Shown here piece after piece: positions 3,062 through 13,472 of a DNA stretch of 50,096 nucleotides (the first letter of the stretch is position 1; each line of letters opens with the position of its first letter). The notes below the pieces were generated by a model. It was not told the DNA's origin, did not search any database, and saw only the letters and a list, made by a program, of their open reading frames with translations. The stretch spans positions 1 to 50,096 of the forward strand of contig JAJRTK010000512.1 of assembly GCA_024278345.1 (NCBI GenBank), given 5' to 3'. The DNA is from a bacterium (GTDB taxonomy: Bacteria > CSSED10-310 > JAJRTK01). Made by a program: the position numbers and the translations under genes.

Positions 3062-5794
3062 CTATACGCGTTCGATACGGGCCGCGATCTTCTTGTAATC
3101 GACCTGACCGCTCACTGGATCCCAAGCCCGGTGGCTTGTCAGGTTCACGAGCCATCGGTTCTTCCGAGGGTCGGCACTGTCGGCAACGGACAAGTTCCAG
3201 GGGCTGAAGATGTGACCGGGGGGCATTTCGCTTCGAGCAGGACGCACCATACTGTCGAGACCGACGGATACACGGCATTCGTAATGGCCTCGGCGGGTGA
3301 CGATTCGGACCTTGTCGCCATCCTCAAAGCCATAGCGTTCGGCATCTTCTTCGGCCATCTCCAGATACTGTTCGGGAACGAGCTTGAGAGTCGTTGCTCC
3401 TCGGATGGTCTTGGCTGTGTGGAAATGCTCGTAAACGATCCCAAGCGAGAGCCAGAAGGGATATTTGTCCTCTGCCTTGTGGTCTTCGATGTTCTTCTTC
3501 TTGTCGCGATAGACAGCGAGGTCTGGAAGCTCCGGAGGCAGCGCCATATCCCGCGCGAGCTCGAGGAGGCTCTTGCGGCCTTCTTTTTTTGCTGCCGCAA
3601 TGTCATCGATGATGAAAGGTCCTTCGCCAGGTCGATCCTTGTTGCCGTATTCCATGAGCTTGCCAGTGATCTCTTCGATTCTGGAGTAATCCTGCTCGCA
3701 GAGCTTGAACCTGGCTTTCCCATCTTTGTGGCGGAAGGCGCCGTAAGGTTTCCCGGCCCAGCCTTCCTGGCCAAGGTAGCGGCGCGGAGTTCCGCCGGCC
3801 TTGGCGATAACACTCGTGGGCGCCGGCCATTGGATGCCTCGAAGCTGGCGAAGCTGATCGTAGGGAGTGATTCCTTCGGCCTTTTCCACTTCCAGGATAC
3901 CGGTCAAGTCAGCATCTGATCCCTTGGAAGCCGTAAGAATATCGCGAAAGATATCTTGCGGATCGTAGGCCATCAGGCCATTGCCCATCTTGATCGTTTT
4001 CTTGTACGGGAAAATTTTATCGGCATCCAAACCAAGCTTCTTGGCAAGAACCCGCCCTTTGTCGATGGCCATATCCATGTCAGGGCGGCAGTTGGGTGGC
4101 GGGTTTTTCGTTCCGTCGCAGACATAGACCCGACGTTCCGATTGAATGTAGGTGCCTCCAGTCCATTCACCCCAGGTGGCGGCGGGAAACACGACATCGG
4201 CGTACAAGTTGTTCGGGGCGTGCCGGTAGATGTCTTGAACCACCACAAACATCTTCGTCAGGGCCGGTCGAACGAGGGTTTCGCAGTCAGCCATGTGAAT
4301 GTGGGTCGTGTACATCCAGAACATGGCCATGAGATCACCCTTCAGGGCACGTTCCATCATGCCGACGACCATGCCTGGGTTCGGCAAGGCTGTCGTCTGC
4401 GCCAGTCTCTCCCTGGGCACCCGCCAGGCATCGGCGATGTGATCCCTCCATTTTTCGTTTTTCAACGGCTGATTGAAGGGAAGGCGACCCGTGAGACCAC
4501 CCATAAGCCGTTCGCTCATGGCGTTGGGTTGGCCGGTCTGGGAGTGACTGCCACAACCAGGCCGCCCAAGGTTGCCTGTCAACAGATGCAGGTTGATGAG
4601 GCCAATGGTGTTGTGTTGGCCGTGGAGCATCTGATTGTAGCCGATGCCCCAGAAAGTCAAGACGCCTCCCTTGCCGCGTTTTCGGCCCTTGATGCTTGCC
4701 TCGGCCCACTGCTTGGCGATGGTCTCGATGAGCTTCACTGTCACGCGACCGTTATCCAGAAGATCAAGGCGCTTGACGACGGCTTTGGGAGAGTATCGTG
4801 TCTTGACTCCTTCGACGTAATCACGCCAGCCTGTCGTGTTCTTTTCGAGCCATTCCTCGGGCATGCAAGCGTCGGGATACTTGGTCAAAAGAACATGGGC
4901 GATGGCGTTGTGGTAGCTGATATCGCCGTTGAAGGTCTGGAGGTGGTAGCTGTTCCTGGGGTTGATGGCTTCAAGGCCAATGACGGTTCCCGTCCGCCGG
5001 GGATCGACGACCAGTGTGGGGATGTTCTTCTGCTTCTTGTGGTCGGCAGCCCGCCAGAAAAGCACGGGATGCGCTTCTCGGGCGTTGTGCCCCCAAAAAG
5101 TAATAAAATCCGCTTGCTCCACATCCTCATAGCTGGTGGGGGGAGCATCGGACCCGTAGGAATAGAAATACCCCGTTACGGCTGAAGTCATGCACATGCG
5201 GGCATTGGCTTCGATGGAGTTGGAGCCAATGACTCCCTTCATCAAAAGGTTTTCGATCCACTGGGCCTCCATGGTGAGCTGACCCGAGCCATTCAAACCA
5301 ACATAGTTGGGGCCTTTTTCCTTAATAATCGCCGCGATCTTCTCAGCCACGAGCTCTTCGGCTTCTTCATAGGGGACTTCCCTGAACACGTTGGCGTCGA
5401 ATCGCCCTTTCGTTGCCGAAACGTGCCCTTTGAGAGGGTCGCTCATGTCTTTCCGAACGAGCACTTTGGTCAAACGATCACGGTAGATCGGCTCGTGCGC
5501 ATTGAGGCCTTTGATGCACTGAATCCCCCGGTTTGTCGGGTGCTTCTTGTCCGGCACCATGCCGACAACCTTCCCATTTTGGACGCGAATGAGCGTTCCG
5601 CAGCCCACCCCACAATAGGGGCAAGCCGATTGGAGGAGCTCCGGTCCCTTGTTGTTCGAGGCTGGAGGTGCATCTTGCGCTTCAACGAATTCAGCGGAGA
5701 AGAGGTTGGTGGCGGCACAGGCGACACCGCTGGCGGCAGCGGCCTGCATGAACTCTCTGCGATTGAAATTGACTGGCCCTTGCCTACGTGGCAT
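3062..5794 (-). CDS. napA: Tat-exported molybdopterin (Mo-bisPGD) oxidoreductase, NapA-like periplasmic nitrate reductase catalytic subunit
   Basis: 910 aa. Tat signal (NRREFMQAAAASG). N-terminal [4Fe-4S] motif CPYCGVGCG..CIKG. The Mo-ligand region ARMCMTSAV matches NapA/NasA (ARHCMASAV, RLCMSSAV). LTGQPNA and YEHFHT segments align with E. coli NapA as recalled. It is about 80 aa longer than typical NapA, so substrate is not proven. Confidence 0.7.
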   Translation of the reverse strand: MPRRQGPVNFNRREFMQAAAASGVACAATNLFSAEFVEAQDAPPASNNKGPELLQSACPYCGVGCGTLIRVQNGKVVGMVPDKKHPTNRGIQCIKGLNAHEPIYRDRLTKVLVRKDMSDPLKGHVSATKGRFDANVFREVPYEEAEELVAEKIAAIIKEKGPNYVGLNGSGQLTMEAQWIENLLMKGVIGSNSIEANARMCMTSAVTGYFYSYGSDAPPTSYEDVEQADFITFWGHNAREAHPVLFWRAADHKKQKNIPTLVVDPRRTGTVIGLEAINPRNSYHLQTFNGDISYHNAIAHVLLTKYPDACMPEEWLEKNTTGWRDYVEGVKTRYSPKAVVKRLDLLDNGRVTVKLIETIAKQWAEASIKGRKRGKGGVLTFWGIGYNQMLHGQHNTIGLINLHLLTGNLGRPGCGSHSQTGQPNAMSERLMGGLTGRLPFNQPLKNEKWRDHIADAWRVPRERLAQTTALPNPGMVVGMMERALKGDLMAMFWMYTTHIHMADCETLVRPALTKMFVVVQDIYRHAPNNLYADVVFPAATWGEWTGGTYIQSERRVYVCDGTKNPPPNCRPDMDMAIDKGRVLAKKLGLDADKIFPYKKTIKMGNGLMAYDPQDIFRDILTASKGSDADLTGILEVEKAEGITPYDQLRQLRGIQWPAPTSVIAKAGGTPRRYLGQEGWAGKPYGAFRHKDGKARFKLCEQDYSRIEEITGKLMEYGNKDRPGEGPFIIDDIAAAKKEGRKSLLELARDMALPPELPDLAVYRDKKKNIEDHKAEDKYPFWLSLGIVYEHFHTAKTIRGATTLKLVPEQYLEMAEEDAERYGFEDGDKVRIVTRRGHYECRVSVGLDSMVRPARSEMPPGHIFSPWNLSVADSADPRKNRWLVNLTSHRAWDPVSGQVDYKKIAARIERV

Positions 5795-5909: not shown

Positions 5910-8666
5910 TTACCGTCCGGTAGTGAGGCTGACGAGATCTCCTTGTTCGGGCGTTGGCTGTTCGCTCGGCCTGAATGCTTCTGGCGCCCAGGTTCGAATG
6001 AAAGCGACGATATCGTTGATCTCCTTGCCCTCTAGCTCTGAAACTCCGCCCCCCCCGCGGCCGAAGGGGCGCATGGCGGTTCCGAGCCGGCCTCGGACAA
6101 TCGTCGCTTGAAGGAAACCATCGGTAGCGGCAGCCAGGAACTCAGAATTGTTTAGAGCCGGTGCCCATCCTTCGCGACCCATGGGTCCGTGGCAGCCTGA
6201 ACATTGCGTCCCATAGAGCAGTTGACCATTGCCAAGATCCGCACCCGCGACATAGCGGTGAGGGAGCGACGTCGGTGGCCGGCGTGCCCAATCTCTGAGG
6301 TAGGCGACAACGTTGTCGATATCCTCCATGGAAAGCTGCACGTTCCCTTGGCCGCCCAAGCCCATAGCCCGCATTTCTGTACCGTCGCGGCCAAGAACGA
6401 TGGTCGCTATCAAGTAGCCGTCGGCCGCGACTCGAAGGAAATCGCGATTCGCCAGTGCGCTGCCCGTGGCGCCCTGCCCTTCGGTCCCGTGACACGAAGA
6501 GCAAGCCCCTTCATAGACTCTCTTGCCAAGGGCCGCAATCCCTGTGCCCGGGCGACTACCCTCCAGGCGTGGCCGTCCTTCGATTTGCCGGAGATAAGTC
6601 ACGATGTCTTCGATCTCTTCGGCTGTCAGCTCGACGATCCCCTGAAGACCTTTGAGGAAAGGCCGCATCTCAGTGCCATCTCGCCCGTACGAAACCCAGT
6701 GGCGCAACACTGCGTTGCTGACGGAAGCCAGAAAAACAGGATTATTGAGCTGAGGTCCGGTGCCACCTTGGGCGTTGTCCCCGTGGCAGCCTGAACAGGA
6801 GCCGCGGTAAAGCCGCGCTCCGCGCACCCAGTCCCCTCGGGCGACGAAATCCTCGAGCTTCTGTCGGCGATTGTCATTGAGGCTACGCATATAGCCGATG
6901 ATCGCCGCAACATCCTCACCCCTAAGACTCTTCCAGGATGGCATCGCCGTGCCCGGCCGTCCACTGACGATGGCGTCGTAAAGGTAGTCGTCTTCCACCA
7001 CTGCAAGGAGAGAATTGGTTCGGAGCGCTGGACCAATGCCGCCTTCTGCTTTTCGGCCGTGACAGCTCGAGCAATGGCTGCGGAAAAGGCCTTTCCCAAT
7101 ACGGATCTCCCGCCGTGGCAGAGGACCGTTGGCCAGCTTTGTCAAGACTTCTTGTTTACGGGAATTCTCAAGCTGCCAGGACCGGATGTAAGCCAGGAGG
7201 TCACTGACTTGTTGATCCCCAAGATCCTTCCAACTTGGCATGGCGGTGTTGGCCCGACCGAAGACAATAGAGTCTCGTAGGAATTCATCCGAAGCTACGG
7301 CAAGGAAGGAGGGCGAACGAAGAGCCACTCCAATCCCTCCCTGGCCGCGGTTGCCGTGGCACGCCGCACACTGGCCCCGGTAGATGACGCGGCCTTTTCG
7401 GGCATCACCATAGGCAGAGCTGATCCGATCAAGAGCGGGTACTTCCTTTTGCCATGATCGGATATAATCAATGATTCGATCAATCTCTTTGGCGTCAAGA
7501 CCTCCCTGCTCAAGGTTCCATCCACCCATGGAGGTCCCGCTCCGCCCCGTGGCGATGATGCGGCGGAGGTAATCATCGCTGGCCACAGCCAGAGTATCGG
7601 GATGGTTGAGGGAGGGGGTCATAAGCTCTCGCGGCGCATCGACGAGCGTGGGCTCAATCTCCGGATCGCGAACCGTGTTGCCAACGCCATCCTTCCCGTG
7701 GCACGCACTACAAAACATCCTGAACAGGCGCCCGCCATCGACGGATTTTCCCGTGCGCGCCGGTGGTACCGGCGTAAAGGCTGCTGGCTGGCTCTTGCGA
7801 TGCAGGCTGAGCATGTAGGTCGCCAAATCCCGAGCCTGTTCATCATTGAGTTCCAGGTCCGGCATGACGGTCTCAGGTGTGACAGCGGCAGGCTCCTTAA
7901 AATGCTCGTAGAGCCACTGAGCGACGGTCCGCTCGCCCTTGACGTTCTTAAAATCAAAATCGTGTGCGACTTTGTCGCCAACCGCTGTGATCTCAGGCCC
8001 TAGGCTTCCGCCACGTCCTCGGTACTCATGGCACCCCAAACAGCCAGATTCTAAGGTGAGCTTCTTGCCTTTCCCCACAACCTCCGCCCCGGGGACGGTC
8101 CAGTCGAGTTCCGACTGGTCCAGGGGTTCTGGTGGAGCTTCCCGGGCATAGAGGTCGTTTTGGGATCCATAGAGGTCATTTTCGTAATGGCACCGCCCGC
8201 AGCTTGTATAAATTTGATCACCCCGGAGCAATGGAGTTTCCCAGTGGGGGACGTCACCGTGGGCATCGGCTATCTTGGTTGCACGGCCCTGCCCATCGTG
8301 ACAAACGGTGCATCCGAATTTGTCCACTGGATGCTGCCGAAGCCATTTTCCCGGATGCGCTTTAAGAGGTTGTTTGGCGTTGGACATGCCTGGATGCTCA
8401 ACTCCCAGATGGCAAGTCATGCATCGATCCACGCGGCCCAGTTCGGATAGGAAGAGCTGCCGGAACTCGATCTCCATTGCCTCCGCTGACGCTCGAGTCG
8501 TGTCGCTCTTCGCTTGCGCAACGAGGGTCTCCCGATAGTTGGCCTGGATTTGTCGCCATTCGCCCGCGAGGTTTTCCTCGAAAGCGGCCAGCATCATCAA
8601 CACGAGCGAAGCAAGGGAGGAAACCAATAAAATGATCTTCAGTTGCCGAACCTGTTTGTACTCCAT
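5910..8666 (-). CDS. membrane-anchored decahaem cytochrome c (three or four N-terminal haems plus six tandem class-I cytochrome c domains)
   Basis: 918 aa. N-terminal TM anchor (IILLVSSLASLVLMMLAAF). Ten CxxCH motifs (CMTCH, CTVCH, CGRCH, CLGCH, CSACH, CAACH, CSSCH, CSGCH, CSSCH, CSGCH). The last six lie in six tandem ~85-100-aa repeats, each with a distal Met (e.g. GTAMPSW, GTEMRPF). Confidence 0.9.
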   Translation of the reverse strand: MEYKQVRQLKIILLVSSLASLVLMMLAAFEENLAGEWRQIQANYRETLVAQAKSDTTRASAEAMEIEFRQLFLSELGRVDRCMTCHLGVEHPGMSNAKQPLKAHPGKWLRQHPVDKFGCTVCHDGQGRATKIADAHGDVPHWETPLLRGDQIYTSCGRCHYENDLYGSQNDLYAREAPPEPLDQSELDWTVPGAEVVGKGKKLTLESGCLGCHEYRGRGGSLGPEITAVGDKVAHDFDFKNVKGERTVAQWLYEHFKEPAAVTPETVMPDLELNDEQARDLATYMLSLHRKSQPAAFTPVPPARTGKSVDGGRLFRMFCSACHGKDGVGNTVRDPEIEPTLVDAPRELMTPSLNHPDTLAVASDDYLRRIIATGRSGTSMGGWNLEQGGLDAKEIDRIIDYIRSWQKEVPALDRISSAYGDARKGRVIYRGQCAACHGNRGQGGIGVALRSPSFLAVASDEFLRDSIVFGRANTAMPSWKDLGDQQVSDLLAYIRSWQLENSRKQEVLTKLANGPLPRREIRIGKGLFRSHCSSCHGRKAEGGIGPALRTNSLLAVVEDDYLYDAIVSGRPGTAMPSWKSLRGEDVAAIIGYMRSLNDNRRQKLEDFVARGDWVRGARLYRGSCSGCHGDNAQGGTGPQLNNPVFLASVSNAVLRHWVSYGRDGTEMRPFLKGLQGIVELTAEEIEDIVTYLRQIEGRPRLEGSRPGTGIAALGKRVYEGACSSCHGTEGQGATGSALANRDFLRVAADGYLIATIVLGRDGTEMRAMGLGGQGNVQLSMEDIDNVVAYLRDWARRPPTSLPHRYVAGADLGNGQLLYGTQCSGCHGPMGREGWAPALNNSEFLAAATDGFLQATIVRGRLGTAMRPFGRGGGGVSELEGKEINDIVAFIRTWAPEAFRPSEQPTPEQGDLVSLTTGR

Positions 8667-8673
8667 GATGCCC

Positions 8674-10302
8674 TCAATGGGTCGGCCACTGGCTAGGCCA
8701 CCAGTAGAAGTCCCAGTTCGGCCCGCGGTGGACGGTGGCGAAGTAGGTCAGCACCACGAACGCGACAATGAAACAGGTGAAAAGGGCGATGGCACTCATC
8801 CGAGTCGAGCGGGTCTTCCCGATGATCCCCAACGACCAAACGATGAAAGCGGTAACGAGCACGGTTCCTGGATTTACAAACGTGATAATGATCTGCGGGA
8901 TTTCCAGAAACCAATTTCTAAGCCATCCAAAATTGACGGTAAAGGTGAGAAGCGCCACGGTGAATAAGAAGGAAAACAGGGCAGTTTGCCAAGCGACTCG
9001 GATGCCTTCTTGCCCGCAAATCCAGCGACCAGGTATTTCGCGCTCCCGATCAAGATAGGGAATCAGCGCCAACCCCAAGATGACTACCGCGGGGATCCCC
9101 ACGCCTCCCATGAAGGCCGAATAACTGACCATTTCCTGGAGTCCCAGGAAATACCACGGCGCCTTGGCGGGGTTCTCAGGGATTCCGGGGTTTGCAAGCT
9201 CCTTTAGCGGTGCGTCGAAGAAGTAGCCCAAAAAGAGCATGACTGCCGTTGTCAACATTGCCAAGGCCGCAATGGCATAGAGGGCATTGGGGTAGGCCGG
9301 AATCGTATTTCGCAGCTCCTTGCCCACGGCAGGTGTCCGCCCCTTCATAAGGGCCATGAGCCCCCAAGTCCGAGTCGATGGATCTCCCTGCTTGGGTGTC
9401 ATGGCTGTCATCGACGGGGCCTCGACATCTTTCCCCGTTGGCCGTGGGGGCACGGTCTCTGCCGGCTTGGCCAGCCCCCCGTCCTTGCGAATGCGCCATA
9501 TATGCACCGCGGCAAATAGGGTCAGAACCAGTGGCAAAACCACCACGTGGAGCACGTAGAAGCGCACCAGTGCTTCCTGCCCCACGTAGTGGGCTCCCAA
9601 CAAGAGTTCCTTCTGCATTCCCCCAATATCTAGGCTGGCTGTAATCCCCAGGGCATCCGTCAGCTCCCGTGGGGATTGAGCGATGTTGGCTCCAATGGTG
9701 CAAGCCCAAAAAGCCAGCTGATCCCAGGGCAGTAGATAACCCGTGAAACTCAGTCCGAGGGTCAAAACGAACAGAGCCATACCAATGACCCAGTTGAACT
9801 CCCGAGGTTTTTTGTAAGCTGCCGTATAAAAAACCCGCGCCATGTGGAGAAACACACATAGGACCATCCCGTGGGCCGCCCAGCGGTGGATGTTTCGGAT
9901 GAAGCGCCCGGACGGAACAACGTAGATGATATCCTTCATGGAGTCGTACGCCAGATCGACGGCCGGTTTGTAGTAAACCATCAAAAGGATGCCCGTGAAG
10001 GTCAGAATGCCAAACAGGACCAGGAGAATGATGCCAAGCCCCATCGTCGCCGAAAACTTTAGCGATCTCAGGTGGACGCGGACCGACATGACATGAAGAA
10101 AAAAATTGCTAAAGACCGTTTGGGAACGAGCCCGATCCGATGTCGGCACACCATGACGCACGACGGAATCGCGAGCGGTATCCGGTAGTGCCTTGAGGTT
10201 TGCCAGGAATGCAGGCAAACCTCCTCGTTCCTCCAGGGCCGGGGAGACCTCAACCGGTGGCTGCCTCCCGTTGATCGATTTTTCGACGGGTGTCGTCGTC
10301 AT
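8674..10302 (-). CDS. cytochrome b, fused b6 / subunit-IV type with extra C-terminal TM helices
   Basis: Maximal ORF 8674..10371 trimmed to ATG 10302 (CAGGAGA 7 nt upstream, 19 nt after the Rieske stop). [15 protein letters not shown] (H-x13-H), [24 protein letters not shown] and [17 protein letters not shown] (H-x14-H, b6-like). Followed by the subunit-IV-like motif PWYFLGLQE. Confidence 0.85.
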
Positions 10303-10321: not shown

Positions 10322-10822
10322 TCAAACCGGAAGCCGCGTGCCGAGAGGAACGTTGATCGCGGTGTCCACAAGGAGCTGCCCGTCCGGAGACAGCCCCATC
10401 GCTATCCAATGGAGTGGCGTTGGCGCAGGTCCCTGGAGCACCTTGCCATCAGGCGCGAAAATCGAACCGTGACAGGGGCACCGAAAAATCCCGTCGGCGC
10501 TGCGGCCAGCAATACATCCCAGGTGTGTACAGATGGATGAAATGCTGTAAAGACCCTTGGCGTCATGAAAAACCCACAACCTAAGTTCCGGGAGATGGGT
10601 CACGGAACCCTTGGGATAGCGCTCGGGATGACCGATCTTTACGCGGGAATTCGATTCGGGAAAAACGGATGGCATCGGCAGCCGGAGGGAGCCAATGAGG
10701 GCGGCTCCGAAAGCTGCTACGGCGGACCAGATCGCCGCTAGTCCCAAGAAGTCTCGACGGGACGCGGGTTCCTGGAACCGGGGACTTTCTTCCAGTGCAG
10801 AGTTCCGAGACAGTTTGCTCAC
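10322..10822 (-). CDS. Rieske [2Fe-2S] iron-sulfur protein, Tat-dependent
   Basis: Maximal ORF trimmed to GTG 10822 (GGGAGG 8 nt upstream; GTGA overlap with the upstream stop at 10819-10821). Tat motif SRRDFLG followed by a TM segment. Rieske boxes CTHLGC and CPCHGS. Confidence 0.85.
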
Positions 10823-12828
10823 GATCCGACCTCCCGCCAGGGACTTTCGTAATGGACTCTCTCCATAGTGATTGCATTGACAGGGCACCGTTCCGCGCAA
10901 AGCGCACAGCGGATGCATCGAGACTCGTCTTTGATGATGGCCGAGCCTTGGGGCAACTCTTCGGGCGCATAGCGAGCCTCGAGAAGTTCCTGTATCTGCT
11001 CCGTCGCCTCCAGTGCCTCCACGGGAACAAGCCTAAGGCAAAGCTCGGGGCAAACATCGGCGCACCCGCCACACAGGATGCAGACGTCGGAGTCAAAGAC
11101 GGTATTGACGCCGCAATCGAAACAGCGACCGGCTTCCCGCATGGCGTCGGCTGGCTCATAGCCAAGCTCTACTACCGCCGTGTGCGAGGCCTTTCTCTTA
11201 TCCGGATCGAGTGCTGGCACTGGCACGCGGCCTTGCTTTTCGTAGTCAGCTTCCCGTTCGTACCCCAATATCGGTACATGGATCATCACCTGCTCAGGTT
11301 TGATTTCTAGACCCGTCAAATAACGATGCACCGATCTGGCAGCCCGTTTGCCCGTGGCGACCGCGTGGATGAGAAGACCCGGTCCCGTGGCGATGTCGCC
11401 AGCCAAGAAAACGTCCTCGGCACTGGTGGTCAACCGCACGGGGTCCACATCGATCAAGCCTCGCTCCGTAAACCGGATATCTCCGCCGGCCGGGATGAAG
11501 CTCAAGTCAGGTTGTTGCCCAATTGCCCAAAGGACGGTGTCAGCCTCGATGGTCGTCAACCCATCTCCAAAAATAGGGGAGAACCGACCGTTTTCATCGA
11601 AGACCCGGAGTACTTCTTGGAAGAGAACGCTTTGGACCTTTCCCGCCTCGTCCAGCAAAATCTCCTTTGGACCCATGCGGTGGTGTCTGACAATGCCCTC
11701 TTCATCACCCTCGATGATTTCCACGTCATCCGCCGGCATTTCTTCAAGGCTTTCCAAGGAGACCATGTTGACTTCCCGAACACTGGGATGGCGCAAAGCG
11801 CTCCTAGCTACGTCAATGTCCACCTGGCGCACGACGGAACGGGCTACGTCATAGGCAACATTTCCACCGCCAATGACCACGATGCGCTGACCAAGCTCCG
11901 CCGGCTCGCTGAGGGCAACACTCCTCAAGAACTCAACTCCACCCAGAACCCCTTCTCCCTTCGACCCCGGAATTGACAATCGGCGGGAGTACTTCGCACC
12001 AACGGCAATGATCGTCGCGGCGAATTCGTTCCGAAGCTGTGCCAAGGAAAGGTCACCCCCAACCTGCACATTGCATTCGAAATGAACGCCTAGGGCTTCG
12101 ATCAACTCGACTTCCGCCGTCACAAGATCTCGAGGCAGGCGGTAAGAAGGAATCCCCAAGACGAGCATCCCCGCCGGAATGGGTTCCATCTCGAAAACCG
12201 TGGGGCGAAATCCCATGAGCGCAAGATCGTGGGCTGCGGCCAACCCCGCCGGCCCAGCTCCCACGATGGCAACTTTGTGGCCATCCAGCTTGGGAGGGTC
12301 GATCCGTCGAAGGAGCCTTCGAAGGCTTGTCAACTCTTCTTTGCCGCGAACTTGGCGCTGGCGTCCGAAATGTAAGACCCGCTGGAGGATGTCCAACGGC
12401 CTTTGGCTCCGGGTTTCGGGGCCGTATAGGTTTGTCACAAACCTCTTCAGTGCTCGAATCGAAACCGCTTGGTCCACGCTTCCTCGGCGGCAGGCAGCTT
12501 CGCAAGGTGCGCCGCAAACTCGTCCACAAATACTGGCGAGCGGATTGGGGCCTCGCGCGATGAGGTAAGCTGCCTCGAAGTTGCCCTGGGCGATCGCCCG
12601 TACATAGCCCCGGGCATCAGTATTGACGGGACAGGCATCGTGGCATTTGATTTGCTTGGTCCAGTAGGCTGCATCCGGAACCTCAACGCGAAGCCTCTCA
12701 CCAGCCGGCTCCGCCACCCCATTCTTGCACATGCTAGCCCGCTCCGGATTCTTTGCTGCACCCCCCCAGGTTCCCGCGCCGATGGGGAACACCGGTTCAA
12801 GGAGCCAACAAACGGAAAAAACGACCAT
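10819..12828 (-). CDS. GltD/NfnB/SudA-like NAD(P)-binding iron-sulfur flavoprotein with C-terminal 2x[4Fe-4S] ferredoxin domain
   Basis: 669 aa. N-terminal Cys motifs (KCHDACP, CGRVCGAPCEAAC). Two dinucleotide-binding motifs (VAIVGAGPAGLAAA, VVIGGGNVAYDVA). C-terminal CILCGGCADVCP and CIRCALCAERCP. No signal peptide. ATG 12828 lies about 50 nt downstream of a TTGACA box; an alternative start is ATG 12732. Confidence 0.8.
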   Translation of the reverse strand: MVVFSVCWLLEPVFPIGAGTWGGAAKNPERASMCKNGVAEPAGERLRVEVPDAAYWTKQIKCHDACPVNTDARGYVRAIAQGNFEAAYLIARGPNPLASICGRVCGAPCEAACRRGSVDQAVSIRALKRFVTNLYGPETRSQRPLDILQRVLHFGRQRQVRGKEELTSLRRLLRRIDPPKLDGHKVAIVGAGPAGLAAAHDLALMGFRPTVFEMEPIPAGMLVLGIPSYRLPRDLVTAEVELIEALGVHFECNVQVGGDLSLAQLRNEFAATIIAVGAKYSRRLSIPGSKGEGVLGGVEFLRSVALSEPAELGQRIVVIGGGNVAYDVARSVVRQVDIDVARSALRHPSVREVNMVSLESLEEMPADDVEIIEGDEEGIVRHHRMGPKEILLDEAGKVQSVLFQEVLRVFDENGRFSPIFGDGLTTIEADTVLWAIGQQPDLSFIPAGGDIRFTERGLIDVDPVRLTTSAEDVFLAGDIATGPGLLIHAVATGKRAARSVHRYLTGLEIKPEQVMIHVPILGYEREADYEKQGRVPVPALDPDKRKASHTAVVELGYEPADAMREAGRCFDCGVNTVFDSDVCILCGGCADVCPELCLRLVPVEALEATEQIQELLEARYAPEELPQGSAIIKDESRCIRCALCAERCPVNAITMERVHYESPWREVGS

Positions 12829-12849
12829 GAATTCTCATTGGCAATAGAT

Positions 12850-12878
12850 TCCATAAAACAATCCAAAACATCTGTCAA
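12850..12878 (-). promoter_or_regulatory. candidate sigma70-type promoter of the respiratory operon
   Basis: The minus strand reads TTGACA (12878-12873), a 17-nt spacer, then TATGGA (12855-12850), about 20 nt upstream of ATG 12828. The -10 is imperfect. Prediction by eye only. Confidence 0.3.
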
Positions 12879-12912
12879 GCCCTGCAACTCACTGGCAGAT
12901 ATAAAAAAACTA

Positions 12913-12950
12913 TTTCGCAAAGAAAATGCATGATCATTTTGCACGAGAAA
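12913..12950. promoter_or_regulatory. imperfect 38-bp palindrome in the divergent intergenic region (candidate Rrf2-family operator)
   Basis: TTTCgcaaagAAAATG-catgat-CATTTTgcacgaGAAA. The core inverted repeat is AAAATG (12923-12928) / CATTTT (12935-12940). The arm AAAATGCATGA resembles the E. coli NsrR half-site AAnATGCATTT as I recall it. Confidence 0.3.
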
Positions 12951-13025
12951 CTCGAACCCTGCACAGGCCACGCCCGAGATCCAGCCCTTGCACTTTGAGC
13001 ACCAATCACCTATTGAGTATGCGAT

Positions 13026-13472
13026 ATGGGTGTCTTACTTTCTAAAACAGCACAATACGCAATTCGAGCACTGGTCGATCTGGCGCTGCAGTCTAGCGAG
13101 CGAGCCACGCCAATCCGGACTATCGCCGAACGTACGAATATTCCTTACCCGTTCCTGGCCAAACTGGTGGTCCAGCTTGTCCAGTCTCGTCTGGTGTCGT
13201 CGCACAAAGGGCCCGGAGGGGGTATCCGCCTGATGCGGCCCGCCAGCAAGATCAGCGTCATTGAGATCATCACGGCGATGGAGGGGGTCAACGCATTTGA
13301 AGCTTGCTTCCTGGGGCTCAAGCACTGTGGCGAGGAAGATCCATGCCCCATGCACGACTATTGGGCCGGCTTCAAGAGCCAGCTCCAGTCGAAATTGGTG
13401 GAGACTTCGCTTGCGGATTTGGCTGAGCTGGAACGAAAGCAGCAAGCGATCAATGCTGGCTCGGCAGACTGA
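13026..13472 (+). CDS. Rrf2-family transcriptional regulator with Fe-S cluster ligand motif (IscR/NsrR-like)
   Basis: 148 aa. Rrf2 winged helix (LSKTAQYAIRALVDLA, IRTIAERTNIPYPFLAKLVVQL, SHKGPGGGIRL). C-x6-C-x5-C-x2-H motif (CFLGLKHCGEEDPCPMH). No SD upstream of the ATG, and a TTGCAC box lies at 12988-12993, so the mRNA may have a very short leader or none. Confidence 0.9.
   Translation: MGVLLSKTAQYAIRALVDLALQSSERATPIRTIAERTNIPYPFLAKLVVQLVQSRLVSSHKGPGGGIRLMRPASKISVIEIITAMEGVNAFEACFLGLKHCGEEDPCPMHDYWAGFKSQLQSKLVETSLADLAELERKQQAINAGSAD

Follow-up and report, generated by a model that had tools for sequence, protein, structure and literature searches.

The flavoprotein gene and its junction with the Rieske gene

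The window analysed here is a whole stretch of 50,096 nucleotides (nt) of bacterial DNA (contig JAJRTK010000512.1 of assembly GCA_024278345.1; GTDB lineage CSSED10-310, JAJRTK01). Our subject is the first gene of an eight-gene operon on its reverse strand, which encodes a flavoprotein that we consider a candidate cytoplasmic subunit of a Rieske/cytochrome b complex. All coordinates refer to this window and, unless stated otherwise, to the reverse (-) strand. The longest open reading frame (ORF) of the gene runs over 669 codons from an ATG at 12828 (10819..12828) and was confirmed in the window, in line with an earlier note on this DNA, which had described a product of 669 amino acids (aa). The ORF therefore stands, but its length probably does not. 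Homologues are 603–658 aa long (n ~200), the first residue of those that were aligned corresponds to Met33 or a later position, and the ATG at 12732 is preceded by a GGAG 9 nt upstream. As such, the true start is probably ATG 12732, yielding a probable coding sequence at 10819..12732 and a protein of 637 aa. Residue numbers below refer to this 637-aa form, with the exception of Pfam coordinates, which follow the 669-aa ORF. The 32-codon 5' extension that separates the two forms (12733-12828; MVVFSVCWLLEPVFPIGAG...) is hydrophobic, might pass for a signal peptide and is present in no homologue. Within the flavoprotein itself no membrane segment was found, the highest 19-residue Kyte–Doolittle mean being 1.5, and the protein is soluble and cytoplasmic.

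At its 3' end the gene overlaps the Rieske gene, as had been reported, in a GTGA at 10819..10822. The junction reads ...GGGAGGTCGGATCGTGA, with the TGA stop of the flavoprotein at 10821-10819 and the GTG start of the Rieske gene at 10822-10820, and a Shine–Dalgarno-like GGGAGG is found upstream of the latter. A simple consensus scan of 12650-13100 detected no sigma-70-like promoter or terminator, and no public sequencing runs containing the stretch were found.

Domains and cofactor motifs of the flavoprotein

Pfam models place a Fer4_20 domain at residues 58–133 (E-value 5.8e-21), a Pyr_redox_2 domain at 185–493 (E-value 1.5e-27) and 4Fe-4S dicluster domains at 577–656. The first of these, a helical Fe-S domain at the N-terminus (12445..12645), carries C30, C34, C69, C73, C77, C81 and K96, all of which are invariant in 78 of 78 family members; K96 aligns with Lys170 of StnC, a ligand of the cluster adjacent to the flavin adenine dinucleotide (FAD) in that protein. 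No cysteine precedes C30, and the canonical N-terminal CxxC is absent, leaving six cysteines where GltD and NfnB have eight. In its place, an invariant R-C-x-x-C follows the flavin domain (R-C-F-D-C with C537 and C540; 11113..11127). Because StnC has the same layout (PMC10482914), these two residues probably supply the cluster ligands that GltD and NfnB hold at the N-terminus. The GltD-type N-terminal cysteine clusters of the earlier note thus exist as a domain, with six cysteines and with the CxxC moved behind the flavin. The same holds in part for the two GxGxxG folds it had described: both dinucleotide folds are present and the FAD-binding motif GAGPAG (12244..12261) fits, whereas the NAD(P)-binding motif GGGNVA (11854..11871) is of the form GxGxxA. 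The additional C-terminal 2×[4Fe-4S] ferredoxin domain (10882..11082) was borne out without change, both by the dicluster models and by two complete CxxCxxCxxxCP motifs (C551/554/557/561 and C606/609/612/616). Judging from these motifs, the protein probably binds FAD, four [4Fe-4S] clusters and one nicotinamide dinucleotide, probably nicotinamide adenine dinucleotide, NAD(H).

An acidic residue at the end of strand β2 of a Rossmann fold is a classic mark of NAD(H) preference, and in the flavoprotein this position is occupied by Leu326-Glu327 (11752..11757; placed by alignment). The sequence [S/C]-L-E is found here in the window protein and in 77–78 of 78 family members. In contrast, Y-R-R stands at the same place in the orthologue of kuste4570 from Kuenenia and in the five solved relatives that were aligned, four of which are described as NADPH-dependent; in PfNfnI-B, Arg325 contacts NADP(H) (PMC12221290). 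The acidic residue, together with the loss of the NADPH-type Arg-Arg, suggests that NADH rather than NADPH is the partner. Among anammox bacteria, the orthologue of Scalindua rubra (L083:7001-8824) carries C-L-E and a 14-residue insert, like the clade of the window, whilst those of Kuenenia (L081:7961-9706), Brocadia and Jettenia have Y-R-R, unlike the syntenic Scalindua. The specificity trait therefore differs even within the anammox bacteria, and the 'NAD(P)' of the anammox literature may hide a true split between NADP and NAD.

Structural and sequence relatives

A sequence search of the PDB returned subunit A of NfnABC (9bov_A, E-value 1.9e-88), StnC (8oh5_C, 1.2e-73) and 9n5u_A (1.3e-71) as best matches, with NfnB (4ylf_B, 3.5e-58; 5jca_L, 1.3e-57), GltD (~1e-40) and dihydropyrimidine dehydrogenase (~1e-25) at lower ranks. 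An AlphaFold2 model of the flavoprotein, computed from a 91-sequence alignment that included anammox homologues, reached a predicted local distance difference test (pLDDT) score of 88.7 and a predicted template modelling score (pTM) of 0.89; a shallower alignment of 24 close homologues gave a pLDDT of 58. In Foldseek this model matched 9bov_A, 8oh5_C and 9n5u_A best (query TM-score, TMq, 0.66–0.67), followed, in the same order as in the sequence search, by NfnB (5jca_L; target TM-score, TMt, 0.79), GltD and dihydropyrimidine dehydrogenase. The likeness to NfnB and GltD drawn in the earlier note is thus seen in the predicted fold, but the closest counterparts are the non-bifurcating StnC/NfnABC modules. 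In StnC, the FAD is described as non-bifurcating and as the start of a linear wire of clusters (PMC10482914).

Neither of the two familiar family names could be retained for the protein. GltD was rejected on the basis of a TIGR01317 score of 182.5 against a cut-off of 447.7, and because no GltB-like gene lies in the operon or directly upstream; nor was an NfnA partner gene found in either place. True NfnB proteins are marked by an upstream nfnA, by Arg333 and by a lengthened N-terminus that bears a CxxC (PMC12221290). Here the neighbouring genes encode an Rrf2-family regulator and the Rieske protein, the position of Arg333 (PfNfnI-B numbering) is taken by Asp335 (Asp in 76 and Glu in 2 of 78 family members), and both a CxxC of the Cys42/Cys45 type and an equivalent of Arg325 are missing; identity as NfnB was rejected on these grounds. 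Furthermore, the ligand of the proximal cluster is Lys, as in the non-bifurcating StnC, where NfnB has Glu. Arg198, which is invariant in the family, matches Arg201 of NfnB.

Partner genes in the operon

The Rieske [2Fe-2S] protein (10322..10822) has a twin-arginine signal (RRDFL) and the boxes CTHLGC and CPCHGSIF. It is followed by a protein of 542 aa (8674..10302) in which a cytochrome b6-like and a subunit IV-like part are fused and the four canonical haem histidines are present. An extra, invariant His lies in the motif NFFLH (codon 10093-10095), and TMGLG is found where the haem cN motif CxGG would be. The quinol-oxidising (Qo) site motif of this cytochrome b is APWY instead of PEWY, and is identical in the subunit IV orthologue of Kuenenia.

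Next in the operon is a membrane-anchored decahaem cytochrome c (5910..8666; 918 aa, 10 CxxCH, N-terminal anchor), and then a divergent NapA-like periplasmic molybdoenzyme of 910 aa (3062..5794) with a twin-arginine translocation signal (NRREFMQ) and a conserved Cys context for the Mo ligand (NARMCM). The nearest solved structures to the latter are NapA proteins (E-value 9e-70), and its score is 308 against a cut-off of 904 for curated NapA; at the same time, it is 75–82 % identical across most loci labelled Planctomycetota. It looks like a distinct, conserved NapA-like subfamily. By profile matches, the remaining three genes encode two NapG-like ferredoxins (2311-2913 and 1586-2311) and a NapH-like membrane protein (26-1570). 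Upstream of the operon, and divergent from it, lies the gene for the Rrf2-family regulator (13026..13472 on the forward (+) strand; PF02082, E-value 1.9e-33).

Conservation of the gene neighbourhood

Relatives of the flavoprotein numbered at least 516 when one genome per species was scanned. Their 80 best loci (52–72 % identity) were retrieved and compared with the window proteins by tblastn; the linkage counts given here cover these 80 best relatives. Four of the loci end at or just after the flavoprotein gene, leaving 76 with downstream DNA, and in all 76 the flavoprotein gene is directly followed by a Rieske and then a cytochrome b gene. Between the flavoprotein stop and the point where the Rieske match begins, the spacing is -25 to 252 nt, in most cases <60 nt. 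Such strict gene order led us to reject chance adjacency to the bc genes, which would have shown itself in homologues usually found without them. The earlier note had proposed a survey of co-occurrence for exactly this purpose, and its outcome was linkage at every locus with downstream DNA. In addition, the Rieske box II reads CPCHGS.F in 74 of 77 family members, the NFFLH His is invariant in 67 of 67 family cytochromes b, and a multihaem cytochrome c follows cytochrome b in the related loci.

By record title, the 80 loci stem from at least eight phyla, with Planctomycetota the most frequent, and include Acidobacteriota, Myxococcota, Ignavibacteria, Spirochaetia, Methylomirabilis, Desulfatibia, Latescibacterota, Binatia and others. 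Three loci on short contigs (L011, L015 and L054; 57–68 % identity) are Planctomycetota-like and carry the titles Ectothiorhodospiraceae, Anaerolineae or Gallionellaceae. These labels may be binning errors, and the number of phyla should be read accordingly.

The genes further downstream were surveyed at the 53 loci with ≥ 6.5 kb of DNA after cytochrome b. At 47 of these, a periplasmic-type molybdoenzyme directly follows the module of flavoprotein, Rieske protein, cytochrome b and multihaem cytochrome c. It belongs to a NapA-like/NapG/NapG/NapH set at 27 loci, the other 26 being without the NapA-like module, and to a type II dimethyl sulfoxide (DMSO) reductase family set of alpha, beta and gamma subunits at 20, with alpha subunits of two sizes (~1145 and ~930 aa); six loci have neither type. 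The constant unit is therefore made up of the flavoprotein, the Rieske protein, cytochrome b and the multihaem cytochrome c, and is usually tied to a periplasmic molybdoenzyme. It had been suggested that the flavoprotein docks near the NapH-like protein. We judge this unlikely, because about half of the family's operons lack NapH, whilst cytochrome b with its extra His is always present.

Homologous complexes of anammox bacteria

The flavoprotein aligns over residues 20–629 with residues 16–572 of the kuste4570 orthologue of a Kuenenia sp. (33 % identity, E-value 8e-99), in which all 16 cluster cysteines, K96 and R198 are conserved; record P0243 is titled 'putative NAD(P) oxidoreductase, FAD-containing subunit [Ca. 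Kuenenia stuttgartiensis]'. The Kuenenia locus (L081), which was reached from the Rieske protein of a Kuenenia sp., encodes a Rieske protein, a flavoprotein of 581 aa, cytochrome b, subunit IV, a hexahaem protein and an HAO-like octahaem protein, i.e. the order of kuste4569–4574. At this locus, as at that of Scalindua (L083), the gene for the flavoprotein sits within the Rieske/cytochrome b operon. The best PDB matches of the window's Rieske protein are 9rk4 (E-value 4.8e-25) and 9rk3 (2.9e-22), the next being 1.6e-13. By their molecule names and a homologue search we take these two to be the solved Rieske proteins of Kuenenia, and 9rk3 to be Kustd1480; box II of 9rk3 has the Ser and lacks the Tyr, the same S/F pattern as in the window family. 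Moreover, the window's cytochrome b shows 46 % identity with the Kuste4571 orthologue, and its C-terminal half 37 % identity with the subunit IV orthologue; His43 of Kuste4571 aligns with the His of NFFLH.

A good deal is on record for the Kuenenia complexes. Hauser et al. (2025) determined potentials of +303 and +335 mV for the Rieske proteins, the latter for Kustd1480, and proposed His43 of Kuste4571 as a ligand of a novel haem b on the dimer axis, where the path to the flavoprotein would begin; this haem b, four clusters and the FAD were modelled as a single path (PMC12954380). As cited there and in PMC5600118, all subunits of the complex co-migrate in Kuenenia (de Almeida et al., 2016), and reduction of NAD(P)+ has been proposed as its function (Kartal et al., 2013). 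The two roles that the earlier note had put forward, input of electrons from NAD(P)H and quinol-driven reduction of NAD(P)+, are the same two that are debated for these homologous complexes (PMC12954380, PMC5600118).

Proposed function and alternatives

Our preferred reading, to which we assign a probability of about 0.5 jointly with the wiring and direction set out below, is that the flavoprotein is the cytoplasmic subunit of a non-anammox member of the 'anammox-type' Rieske/cytochrome b complexes. Starting from homology, cofactor motifs and gene linkage, all of which are directly established, we infer its docking, its preference for NAD and the direction of electron flow. The flavoprotein would dock on the negative (n) side of the cytochrome b dimer, with its four clusters lined up as a single linear wire that connects the flavin with the n-side of cytochrome b. 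At that end, the two invariant histidines of the dimer would hold between them an extra haem b, which would probably take or give the electrons. The flavin would act as an ordinary converter between two-electron and one-electron steps, not as a bifurcating centre of the NfnB type. Any bifurcation would take place at the Qo site, where menaquinol would be oxidized. The first electron would run downhill via the high-potential Rieske protein and the decahaem cytochrome c to the periplasmic NapA-like enzyme (nitrate), and the second would pass via haems bP and bN, the extra haem b, the four clusters and FAD to NAD+. The whole chain may be reversible.

The host phyla are known as menaquinone users, and a high-potential Rieske signature in such phyla argues for electron flow from quinol to NAD+. 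Two further features point the same way: the haem cN quinone site has been lost, and the module is constantly paired with a nitrate-reductase/nitrite-oxidoreductase-type molybdoenzyme, whose likely substrate couple has a very high potential. At roughly even odds we chose this direction, the one of Kartal and colleagues. Several observations weigh against it. By our own estimate, electron transfer from menaquinol to NAD+ against the membrane potential is thermodynamically marginal, and many of the hosts belong, by record title, to largely heterotrophic groups with no obvious need for NADH from quinol. Reduction of NAD(P)+ has so far been a proposed function even in Kuenenia. Reading specificity from Leu-Glu follows a rule of thumb, and close to these residues lies the clade-specific 14-residue insert, whose invariant R310 and R314 could bind a 2'-phosphate. 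Lastly, since the operon begins with an NADH module and goes on to a terminal reductase, it is natural to see in it a forward chain from NADH to nitrate. In such a chain NADH would be oxidized, its electrons would reduce quinone at an n-side site via the four clusters and the n-side haems, and the operon would be self-contained, with a Q cycle conserving energy. Not only do the layout of the genes and the heterotrophic hosts suit this alternative, but by our estimate its potentials would be downhill throughout; the structurally closest proteins, StnC and NfnABC subunit A, are likewise NADPH-oxidizing input modules with a linear chain of clusters (PMC10482914). The Rieske proteins fit it poorly, since the potential-raising Ser of box II is found family-wide and the +303 and +335 mV of the homologues are unexpectedly high for menaquinol oxidizers; Hauser et al. 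hold such potentials to fit the reduction of NAD(P)+, and regard it as wasteful for NAD(P)H to refill quinone in organisms that possess complex I (PMC12954380). Furthermore, the window's cytochrome b lacks the haem cN motif, with which b6-type complexes build their n-side quinone site. All in all, we regard forward entry as the main rival explanation, less likely than our preferred one.

Flavin-based bifurcation as in NfnB, a role that had been hinted at for the FAD, would agree with the NfnB-like fold (TMt 0.79 to 5jca_L), with Arg198 and with the presence of two separate Fe-S domains. It is nonetheless very improbable and we do not uphold it, given the Asp at the Arg333 position, the absence of both nfnA and the N-terminal CxxC, and a proximal-cluster Lys like that of StnC, in keeping with closest structures that do not bifurcate. 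Scarcely any weight can be given to the notion that the protein is an independent soluble enzyme, whether as a ferredoxin:NAD(P) oxidoreductase or in partnership with a different enzyme, and is merely co-transcribed with the bc genes. Stand-alone NfnB-like Fnor enzymes do exist (PMC12221290), but the gene order is kept at 76 of 76 loci from many phyla, with junctions of the coupling type. The conserved His on the n-side of cytochrome b is specific to this clade, and homologous subunits co-migrate in Kuenenia, as cited in the two papers named above.

Significance

Both the linkage and the two candidate functions have been published before (Kartal, 2013; Dibrova, 2013/2017; Hauser, 2025), and no new principle is introduced here; what we add is small, namely a signature of the NAD type, a non-bifurcating module like that of StnC and the pairing with a molybdoenzyme. 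Whether a Rieske/cytochrome b complex can deliver its low-potential electron to NAD(P)+ instead of to quinone has been a question since 2013, and one studied only in slow-growing anammox enrichments. The same set of subunits, with the key residues kept, is now seen in Planctomycetota-like bacteria outside the anammox group as well as in many further phyla, and is usually tied to an enzyme of the nitrate-reductase type. The idea could thereby be tested in organisms that are easier to handle and with a defined acceptor. Tentatively, quinol-based bifurcation onto NAD+ might then be a general bacterial device and not an anammox oddity, in which the large potential drop to the molybdoenzyme drives the second menaquinol electron. 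If this is true, the NapA-like enzyme here, and the Nar/Nxr-like type II DMSO reductases elsewhere, would be hard-wired high-potential acceptors, whilst the second electron of menaquinol would reach NAD+ by way of the additional haem b and the four clusters; this would amount to reverse electron transport without a need for proton-motive force.

Comparison with known systems

With NfnB, GltD and the N-terminal half of dihydropyrimidine dehydrogenase, the flavoprotein shares the fold of residues ~20–500 (TMt 0.75–0.79) and the FAD and dinucleotide motifs, but it differs from them in its permuted cluster ligands and its extra ferredoxin domain. StnC (8oh5) and NfnABC subunit A (9bov, 9n5u), its best matches in both sequence and fold, have more in common with it: a GltD-like module with C-x3-C ... 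C-x3-C-x3-C ... Lys, the FAD and NAD(P) folds, a post-flavin R-C-x-x-C-G (RCFDCG in the window) and, after it, a 2×[4Fe-4S] domain. These proteins are 1172–1178 aa long and possess an N-terminal [2Fe-2S] and a C-terminal formate-dehydrogenase-like (FdhF-like) domain, both absent from the window protein, which ends after the ferredoxin domain at 637 aa. They also have HydBC-like partner genes, none of which is present in the window operon, and YRR (NADPH) in place of SLE. Their wire ends at a soluble bifurcating module, whereas that of the window protein would end at a membrane cytochrome b.

Kartal et al. (2011, 2013) and Dibrova and colleagues (2013/2017) described cytochromes b of a subfamily G that are found together with large oxidoreductases which are Cys-rich and bind NAD(P). 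Dibrova and colleagues also described long cytochromes b that lack CxGG and belong to extensive conserved operons, whose function they gave as unknown (PMC5600118). The fused cytochrome b of the window, lacking CxGG, matches the long form, although its assignment to subfamily G or clade G' (e.g. DAMO_0768 of Ca. Methylomirabilis oxyfera) is by description only. A Methylomirabilis locus (L078) belongs to the window family with 55 % identity; our literature search returned nothing usable on a Methylomirabilis complexome or on Rieske proteins of Planctomycetes or Acidobacteria.

The anammox complexes (Kuste4569–4574 and Kustd1480–1485) share with the window the domain order of the flavoprotein with its 16 Cys, Lys96 and Arg198, the adjacent genes for the Rieske protein, cytochrome b and multihaem cytochrome c, the type of Rieske protein, the equivalent of His43 and the APWY motif. 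The proteins are only 33–40 % identical, however, and a number of differences set the two apart. The flavoprotein gene comes first in the window and after the Rieske gene in Kuenenia, and its product carries inserts of 31 (119–149) and 14 residues (304–317) relative to Kuenenia. Leu-Glu, found in Scalindua (L083) too, replaces the Arg-Arg of the Kuenenia/Brocadia/Jettenia type, and cytochrome b and subunit IV form one fused protein with TMGLG, in contrast to the split proteins and CMGG haem cN motif of Kuenenia. Finally, where Kuenenia pairs the module with a hexahaem and an HAO-like octahaem protein, the partners in the window are a decahaem cytochrome and the NapA-like/NapGH set.

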